A DNA stretch of 64,000 bases. Source: Candidatus Freyarchaeum deiterrae (GTDB taxonomy: Archaea; Asgardarchaeota; Jordiarchaeia; Jordiarchaeales; Jordiarchaeaceae). The notes beneath the pieces are model-generated. The model made no database searches, was not told the origin of the DNA, and worked only from the letters and a program-made list of their open reading frames with translations. The stretch is from NCBI GenBank assembly GCA_037305845.1, contig CP147778.1, positions 1,664,001 through 1,728,000 on the forward strand, given 5' to 3'. Of the stretch, positions 25,628-61,443 are shown piece after piece (position 1 is the stretch's first letter; each line of letters begins with the position of its first letter). The translations under genes and the position numbers were made by a program.

Positions 25628-25995
25628 GGTGGCGAGTCCTGAAGCTCGACATCCCGCACTACCAGCGTATCTGACACCTATTCTCCAATCCGGGATTCTG
25701 GAAGCACCGAGCGTTCAGAGTTAGGTTGCTCCATCAGGGCGCCGACCTAAATTATGCCAGCGTTCTCCCGGGCCTAACCGGTTTCCCTAATGAAGGATAA
25801 ACATACTTTCCCTACGAAAAGCTGTTACCCACCGTCGATCCTCCAGTGCGGATTTTCACTGCCTCGGAGACAGACCGTTTTGGCAGATTGGATATGCCTC
25901 ACATCAGCTTTCGGCCCGCCATATAGAGGATTTGCGGTCGAGAGGAGAACCTCTCTCAGGCAACCCCTATTTGCCCGCCTAGACAAGCCACCACC
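25628..25995 (-). ncRNA. ffs: SRP (7S) RNA with a 32-nt BHB intron at 25733-25764
   Basis: Termini pair (GGTGGTG/CGCCACC); Alu loop-loop complementarity ATAGGGG/CCTCTAT; helix 6 GTAG loop; helix 8 GGTTAGGCCC...GGAGCAACC split by the insert. Confidence 0.93.
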
Positions 25996-34330: not shown

Positions 34331-34422
34331 GGGCGTATGGTCCAGTGGCTATGACACCGCGCTTACAACGCGGTAAATCCTTTTCAGGAGCCGAATCCGC
34401 GGTTCGAATCCGCGTACGCCCA
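34331..34422 (+). tRNA. tRNA-Val(TAC) with a 19-nt variable-loop intron at 34377-34395
   Basis: Acceptor GGGCGTA/TACGCCC; CCGCG-CTTACAA-CGCGG; BHB central helix CGGT/GCCG. Confidence 0.92.
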
Positions 34423-34611
34423 CCTCTTCCATCTTTGGTGGCCTAAATTGTATATTTTTCTCTTTCAACTGCTCTAAAAACTTAATCATATAGGTTAATT
34501 CTAAATTTTCGCGATTGATTAAATATATCGCGTTTTTAAGGGAGCTTTTCTAAAAATCTTTTGCGATCTTTTTTTAGATAATCTTATATTTTTTGGCTGA
34601 TATTCCATATT

Positions 34612-35012
34612 GGGGTGATGAGCAGAAGGACGGCTGCCGGTGCCTTTTGGTGCTGAGGAAATCCATCCATCATGTGGGGCTCGAGCATTGTAAAGTGCAG
34701 GCTGAGAAGTCTGGCAATGGAGCAGAAATCCTTTGAATTAAGGACTGTAAACGACACATCCTTCTGAATAATGACTATGATATGGAATAAGAACGTAAAA
34801 CCAATCTTTTGGTGTTCGTTCTACAATAAAACCGTTGAGGATTCAGAAGGAATTGTTGAAACGACCATCCTCGAGGATGCAAGTCCAAATAGGCTGCCGA
34901 TTATCCCCCCACAAGAGGCGGCGGGTAGGACGCTAAGCTGAATGCTGTCAAGAGATCTAATGGTAACATTGACCTCTGAACAGAAGGTGGATTACTCTCT
35001 GCACATCACCCC
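34612..35012 (+). ncRNA. rnpB: RNase P RNA with a 23-nt BHB intron at 34728-34750
   Basis: P1 GGGGTGATG/CATCACCCC; CR-I GAGGAAATCC; CR-V AACAGAAGGTGGAT; P6 GTGGGG/CCCCAC; TGAAACG. Confidence 0.94.
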
Positions 35013-52275: not shown

Positions 52276-52417
52276 GCAGGGCTAGCTAAGTGGTTAACAG
52301 CGCCGGACTCAAGATCCAAAAAAGTAGCCTAGATGGTTAAGCCATCCGGTCCCGTAGGGGTACGGGAGTTCGAAAGAGGGTAAAATTAACCTTCCGATAT
52401 TCTCCCGCCCTGCACCA
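52276..52417 (+). tRNA. tRNA-Leu(CAA) with two introns: 52314-52343, 52375-52400
   Basis: Acceptor GCAGGGC/GCCCTGC, A73, CCA, long variable arm; 86 nt after intron removal. Confidence 0.9.
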
Positions 52418-61051: not shown

Positions 61052-61167
61052 GGGCCCTTAACTCAGCTGGTAGACCCTTAAAAAGCCTTTTAAGGAACGC
61101 CAGGAGTACCTGATTCGCATTCAGAAAATTCAGGAAGCCGCGAGTTCGAATCTCGCAGGGTCCACCA
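61052..61167 (+). tRNA. tRNA-Ala(CGC) with a 31-nt intron (61074-61104) and a 9-nt insert (61120-61128)
   Basis: Acceptor GGGCCCT/AGGGTCC with G3:U70; CCA; 76 nt after removal. Confidence 0.88.
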
Positions 61168-61312: not shown

Positions 61313-61443
61313 TGGTGGACCCAGTGGGAGACTCGCCGTTGAGAGTTACCTCAACCGATTCGAACCCACGGCCGACTGGCTGCAAACCAGTCGCTTTAAG
61401 CTTGCGCTTACTTAAGCGGAATCTACCGCTGAGCTATGGGCCC
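61313..61443 (-). tRNA. tRNA-Ala(TGC) with two introns: 61396-61422, 61330-61358
   Basis: Acceptor GGGCCCA/TGGGTCC with G3:U70; CCA; 75 nt after removal. Confidence 0.92.

Follow-up and report, generated by a model that had tools for sequence, protein, structure and literature searches.

RNase P RNA is one of two universal ribozymes. In the RNase P RNA of M. jannaschii, CR-II and CR-III directly form the T-loop anchor (PMC6565675), and an RNase P RNA of type T has been modelled as well (PMC3579882). The loop of A. pernix EndA, together with its Lys, allows the cutting of relaxed and oddly placed introns (PMC3241643), and tRNA introns located in the T-loop have been termed rare (PMC3378863). 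The SRP RNA of Thermoproteus is permuted and is circularized at the tip of helix 8 by EndA and RtcB; its ancestor has been suggested to be an SRP gene interrupted by a simple BHB intron (Plagens et al., 2015, PMC4731332). Freyarchaeia, alternatively named Jordarchaeia, is an Asgard class, and in the genome of Ca. Freyarchaeum deiterrae 92–95% of the tRNA genes contain introns (PMC11291895). This genome is a single contig of 3,576,204 bases. Here we analyzed a window of 64,000 nucleotides of it (CP147778.1, positions 1,664,001 to 1,728,000), in which the RNase P RNA gene carries a 23-nt insert within CR-II. From comparative sequence analysis and fold prediction, we consider it highly probable that this insert is a genuine EndA/RtcB intron, the removal of which would rebuild the T-loop for the tRNA elbow.

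The RNase P RNA gene and the insert in CR-II

The RNase P RNA gene matched the RF00373 (RNaseP_arch) model at 34618-35006 on the forward strand with 165.5 bits, relative to a cut-off of 84, and model positions 1-288 were all covered. The ends of the gene were set by helix P1 (Table 1), the precursor being ~401 nt and the spliced RNA 378 nt in length. This was the one match in the whole genome, and no intronless duplicate of the gene was found in this genome. Two-sided changes were observed at 35 of 104 predicted pairs, and this covariation points to structural selection on the gene. Open frames for the four RNase P proteins, i.e., Pop5, Rpp30, Rpp21, and Rpp29, are present in the genome, while a search for protein-only RNase P (HARP, PF08745) found none among the 11 genomes of the order. 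The single copy, the covariation, the four proteins, and the negative search for a protein-only enzyme together argue for a dependence of the cell on this RNA. Its P12 and P19-type extensions are long; a 28-nt stretch near 34950-34977 was considered as a second intron and rejected, being a plain P19-type hairpin with covariation. T/A runs resembling the TATA-like element upstream of the gene also precede it in relatives.

Table 1. Features in the window (position 1 is the first letter of the 64,000-nucleotide stretch)
Feature	Position	Strand	Basis
RNase P RNA gene, archaeal, type A-like	34612..35012	+	Rfam RF00373 match; P1; covariation
TATA-like element TTATAT, ~25 nt 5' of RNase P gene	34584..34589	+	read from sequence
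Exon 1, 3' end = CR-II bases GCAGAA	34612..34727	+	sequence, RF00373 alignment
tRNA-type (HBh') intron candidate, 23 nt	34728..34750	+	RF00373 alignment; relatives; geometry
Exon 2, beginning with the final A of T-loop 1, then P12	34751..35012	+	RF00373 alignment; T-loop numbering inferred from PMC3664808
Central helix, 4 bp, exon strand GCAG	34722..34725	+	predicted pairing
5' bulge AAA	34726-34728	+	sequence
Inner hairpin of intron, 5 bp and 6-nt loop (34729-34733 with 34740-34744)	34729..34744	+	predicted pairing
Central helix, intron strand CTGT (CTGC in 7/9 variants)	34745..34748	+	variant comparison
3' bulge AAA	34749-34751	+	sequence
CR-III, TGAAA, T-loop 2, intact	34857..34861	+	sequence and RF00373 alignment
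tRNA-Val(TAC) gene, 5' of RNase P gene	34331..34424	+	sequence; listed in Supplementary Data 4 of PMC11291895
tRNA-Val(TAC) variable-loop intron, 19 nt	34377..34395	+	geometry
SRP RNA gene	25630..25990	-	Rfam RF01857, 103.6 bits
SRP RNA tRNA-type intron candidate, 32 nt, helix-8 tip (GNRA loop)	25733..25764	-	geometry, relatives, shuffles

The insert is located in J11/12 (CR-II), where exactly 23 inserted nucleotides separate ACAGAA from ACGAcAC in the RF00373 alignment. The original prediction had described a GCAG/CTGT helix, two AAA bulges, and a hairpin at this site, and both the sequence and the coordinates were confirmed; its statement that removal of 23 nt from CR-II restores the usual junction agrees with the alignment, with the outgroup junctions, and with the gain in outgroup HMM score given below. 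Because AAA occurs at both ends, four registers of the intron lead to an identical product, and the register in Table 1 was chosen by the rule that cutting occurs after the second bulge base. In a fold prediction of the whole precursor, the nine pairs had probabilities of 0.85-0.93. The bare motif occurs 21 times on the forward and 26 times on the reverse strand of the window, and 12 times in one shuffled strand, so that, being frequent by chance, it is by itself little proof. Among 200,000 shuffled versions of the insert, a fraction of 1.6e-4 (~1 in 6,000) had a geometry matching the insert ends as defined by the alignment. No exon-exon outer helix closes the second bulge (0/4 outer pairs), and the strict hBHBh' motif is thus absent. 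The insert, which had been predicted to be a BHB intron, is therefore better described as the relaxed HBh' form (PMC4090602): the helix, bulges, and inner stem of that prediction stand, whereas the strict two-bulge BHB does not, and a site from which the outer helix is wholly absent is a weaker form of splice site. No Rfam match to a group I or group II self-splicing intron or to a nuclease-bearing insertion was found in the window, and the inserts at this site are just 15-28 nt in length.

Numbered by position from PMC3664808, T-loop 1 would consist of A34724-G-A-A34727 and A34751, with G34722 as the platform base. The insert lies between T-loop bases 4 and 5, and its CUGU pairs with G34722-G34725, so that the GCAG strand of the helix includes the platform base as well as bases 1 and 2 (AG) of T-loop 1. 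Since the intron helix makes use of T-loop bases, the helix of the precursor and the T-loop of the mature RNA would be mutually exclusive. On this structural reasoning, RNase P RNA would have to be spliced in order to work, with the unspliced form being poorly active.

Distribution of the insert and other introns of the genome

The insert was observed at the same site in 8/8 genomes of the order in which the gene is assembled; the order comprises 11 genomes, and in G002, G005, and G008 the RNase P gene is not assembled. Three further variants were obtained from metagenome contigs, which were searched with the unspliced pattern, for a total of nine variants with lengths of 15, 19, 23, or 28 nt. 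Constant in 9/9 variants are the GCAG/CTGY helix and both AAA bulges. The first inner pairs are also fixed, with one T-A/C-G swap between the two families of the order that the insert spans; the remaining insert is variable, including the inner stem, which is 5 bp here and 2-6 bp in relatives and varies in both length and sequence. Across the nine variants 54/54 cells were paired, compared to 4-37% when slid. Covariation within the central helix is scant (3/4 pairs invariant, one pair G-C or G-U), which reflects an invariant exon side and the kinship of the sequences; owing to that kinship, the variants represent one gain rather than nine events.

Outside the order, the insert was absent from 41 RNase P RNA genes of 16 other Asgard families, a count that leaves out loci L047 and L050, and the junction in these genes is contiguous. 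In the outgroup genes that look most similar, the junction matches the predicted spliced product over ~30 nt; for example, the predicted spliced junction of one genome of the order (G007) is identical to the intronless gene of G047 over this length. Removal of the insert raised the score of an HMM built from the outgroup by 12-15.5 bits in 8/8 genomes, with +15.5 bits for this gene. In a GTDB-wide scan, with a pattern that detects just this site and similar exons, true RNase P matches were found in this order only, and a match titled Thermoproteota (L113) proved to be the order genome G009. A loose pattern applied to 400 Asgard genomes gave many chance matches; among the matches listed, those placed in RNase P were the same 8 genes. 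The sequence identity across the junction bears on one proposal of the original prediction, a 16-nt junction probe for spliced reads. Soil metatranscriptomes have been made from the site where the genome was found (PMC11291895; BioProject PRJNA1050611), and in such community RNA the probe would yield false positives, as the identical 16-mer occurs in the DNA of RNase P genes that lack the intron in other Asgard families.

We further compared the insert with the tRNA introns of the genome. When the 61 published introns were re-read, the helix was complete (4/4) in 42, lengths ranged over 11-51 nt, and the bulges were mostly purine, with AGA and AAA as the commonest 5' bulges. Fewer than two outer pairs were present in 14 of the 61, and the first outer pair was missing in 4. 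In its relaxed HBh' form the RNase P insert thus appears like several tRNA introns of the same genome. About 15 of the 61 annotated introns are located in the T-loop, the portion of the tRNA read by RNase P; in those tRNAs, splicing therefore probably precedes 5' trimming. Also of note are three tRNA genes listed in the supplement to PMC11291895, i.e., tRNA-Ala(CGC) at 61052-61167, which was missed by ARAGORN and has two introns (D-loop and anticodon loop), tRNA-Leu(CAA) at 52276-52417, and tRNA-Ala(TGC) at 61313-61443 (-).

The tRNA-Val(TAC) intron, ~330 nt 5' of the RNase P intron, shows the same geometry, the same start, and a similar inner stem. It is missing from the paralogue tRNA-Val(CAC) and from the tRNA-Val(TAC) gene on contig L080, and relatives within the genus carry it in both of their tRNA-Val genes. 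Genome-wide, the shared start and stem in combination with a 4/4 helix were found at these two introns only. In the second family the RNase P insert has a different inner stem, and in G004 the RNase P and tRNA-Val genes are 19 kb apart. The sequence likeness is suggestive of a common origin of the RNase P and tRNA-Val(TAC) introns.

The SRP RNA gene of the window has a comparable insert. Excision by the same cut rule restores CCC-GGGA-GGG, and the corresponding shuffle fraction was 2.6e-4. All 9 genomes of the order in which the gene is present have it, as do 5 genomes from two further Asgard families, i.e., a total of 14 genomes in three Asgard groups, with lengths of 18-32 nt; it was absent in the other families read. 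The intron strand is CCCG, CCTG, CTCG, or CTTG (in one case ACCG), and pairing with the exon CGGG is kept. Because both housekeeping RNAs show the pattern, chance or retained hairpins become less likely for RNase P and SRP RNA. A locus of another Asgard family (L177, G033:C1:41419-41762) has a 31-nt SRP insert located a few nucleotides further upstream, within the stem of helix 8, for which a 4/4 helix is possible and the inner stem is weak. In addition, the 16S rRNA gene (L168:1771-1860; ~1805166-1805255) contains an insert of ~90 nt with a GTAG/CTAC helix, the removal of which restores a hairpin near model position 245; rRNA introns are of a known kind.

Splicing enzymes and alternative explanations

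Two EndA genes are present in the genome, corresponding to a two-subunit (alpha2beta2-type) splicing endonuclease; the first encodes the catalytic Tyr/His/Lys, and the second is without the His. The best solved match of the catalytic EndA is the A. pernix alpha subunit (E 9e-43), and its loop GQPLGIRKPK aligned with the A. pernix GQPLDVEKPR, a crenarchaeal-type loop. In this protein (L060:1141-1779), the loop resembling the 'Crenarchaea-specific loop' has a Lys at the position of A. pernix K44. Judged from these sequences, the host EndA appears suitable for relaxed sites, and RtcB is also encoded. The only rtcB gene (L144, near 1452800, reverse strand) is itself interrupted, within its LPDxHxGYG motif, by an insert of 29 nt that shifts the reading frame and has 3/4 pairs in the helix. 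As this insert is of the tRNA-intron type and shifts the frame, the cell must splice RNAs besides tRNA. The reading of the RNase P insert as an intron, as originally predicted, is thereby sustained by the splice geometry that alone is conserved across the nine variants, by the 41 outgroup genes without the insert, by the likeness to tRNA introns, and by the suitable EndA.

In our best reading of the insert, its position, its conservation, and the enzyme genes, a single intron gain would have occurred in the ancestor of the order. In the precursor, the intron CUGY would pair with the CR-II exon GCAG and the inner hairpin would fold, forming the predicted HBh' site. We infer that EndA cleaves behind the second A of both AAA bulges, i.e., at 34727/34728 and 34750/34751, and that RtcB ligates the exons to restore GCAGAA|A; T-loop 1 would then be able to form its interlocked fold with CR-III and to stack against the elbow of the tRNA, followed by assembly. 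The intron would most likely be a tolerated passenger that persists because it is cut out, with selection keeping just the shape needed by the enzyme. Its presence is most simply explained by neutral intron spread, given the many introns of this genome and its permissive enzyme.

Several other explanations were weighed. If the insert were retained in the RNA as a lineage-specific J11/12 hairpin, the enzyme would work either through a T-loop that still forms or through compensation by protein. Variable helices do occur elsewhere in RNase P RNAs, as in the long P12 and P19-type extensions of this one, the ribosomal L1-stalk T-loop tolerates a single additional base at the corresponding point, between positions 4 and 5 (PMC3664808), and type T RNase P is wholly without an S domain (PMC6565675). 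However, a retained hairpin gives no cause for the complementarity of CUGY to CR-II or for exact 3-nt A bulges around an inner part of 15-28 nt; its pairing would compete with T-loop 1, CR-III is kept intact, and cleavage of a site of this kind by the host EndA is to be expected. We therefore regard retention as decidedly improbable. If the site were instead cut without rejoining, a two-piece RNase P RNA would result, the halves being held by P10-P12 pairing, and the break does lie between helices able to hold them. Fragmented structural RNAs exist in prokaryotes. Such an outcome is given very little credence: cuts in the bulges leave ends that RtcB joins, the joined product is exactly the outgroup sequence, and a nick within the T-loop would weaken it. 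A misassembly, an insert of chance origin, or a dead copy of the gene would fit with the frequency of the bare motif, but the occurrence of the insert in 8 genomes and on independent metagenome contigs refutes an error of assembly, and a dead copy is opposed by a single-copy gene with covarying helices for which no substitute enzyme was found; these explanations have a negligible probability.

A spliced intron might also serve as a control point, such that the share of spliced RNA tracks the capacity of EndA/RtcB and matches 5' trimming to splicing. Retention of the intron across two families would be in keeping with this, as would the similar-type inserts in rtcB, SRP RNA, and 16S rRNA and the tRNA introns (~15/61) that interrupt the T-loop, which is read by RNase P. 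On the other hand, the inner sequence is unconserved and offers nothing for a regulator to read, and precise loss of an intron is simply rare. Since introns occur throughout the genome, the RNase P intron needs no special purpose, and a control function is in our judgement unlikely. The coupling of 5' processing to tRNA splicing that was originally proposed thus holds as a dependency, while nothing points to it as regulation.

Comparison with known introns and RNAs

In the open-access literature, we found neither an intron described for any RNase P RNA nor an internal BHB intron described for SRP RNA, in agreement with the original prediction, which knew of no described RNase P example. Chan et al., 2012 mention no intron, and neither RNase P nor SRP RNA is mentioned in the text or the accessible supplements of the paper on this genome (PMC11291895). 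If spliced, the tRNA-trimming enzyme would itself be processed by the tRNA-splicing pathway, with the cuts falling in the very loop that grips the tRNA elbow. We think it probable that this is the first RNase P RNA intron and that protein-spliced introns have spread through all major RNA classes of an Asgard lineage (tRNA, rRNA, mRNA, RNase P RNA, and SRP RNA), so that both 5' tRNA maturation and protein targeting would depend on EndA/RtcB, with the SRP intron representing a simple forerunner state of the permuted SRP RNA. The RNase P and SRP RNA introns would widen the known range of hosts of EndA introns, in a lineage that admitted introns into its most conserved RNAs, and may provide a prokaryotic model for the spread of introns once an efficient splicing enzyme exists.

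The class of intron is known and the host is new. Relative to the non-canonical BHB/HBh' introns of archaeal tRNAs (Marck and Grosjean classes; PMC4090602; PMC11291895), the RNase P insert has the same 4-bp helix and 3-nt bulges, the same predicted cut after the second bulge base, a short inner hairpin, a length within the same range, and the same type of EndA; the difference is the host, which there is a tRNA and here the RNase P ribozyme. Archaeal rRNA BHB introns are likewise of EndA type, outside tRNA, and at a conserved functional site. Many of them are long and contain homing endonucleases. The crenarchaeal cbf5 pre-mRNA intron (Watanabe, 2002; Yoshinari, 2006; cited in PMC12397907) is similarly a short EndA-type intron at a conserved site outside tRNA. 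In these cases the hosts are mRNA or rRNA, whereas the present candidate interrupts RNase P RNA with 23 nt and no gene inside. The Thermoproteus SRP gene is permuted and its product circular, while the Asgard SRP RNA gene would have a plain internal intron, resembling the proposed ancestor in another lineage. Compared to archaeal RNase P RNAs of RF00373 (types A and M), all conserved regions are present here after removal of the insert and four protein subunits are encoded, the distinguishing feature being that CR-II is interrupted in the gene.
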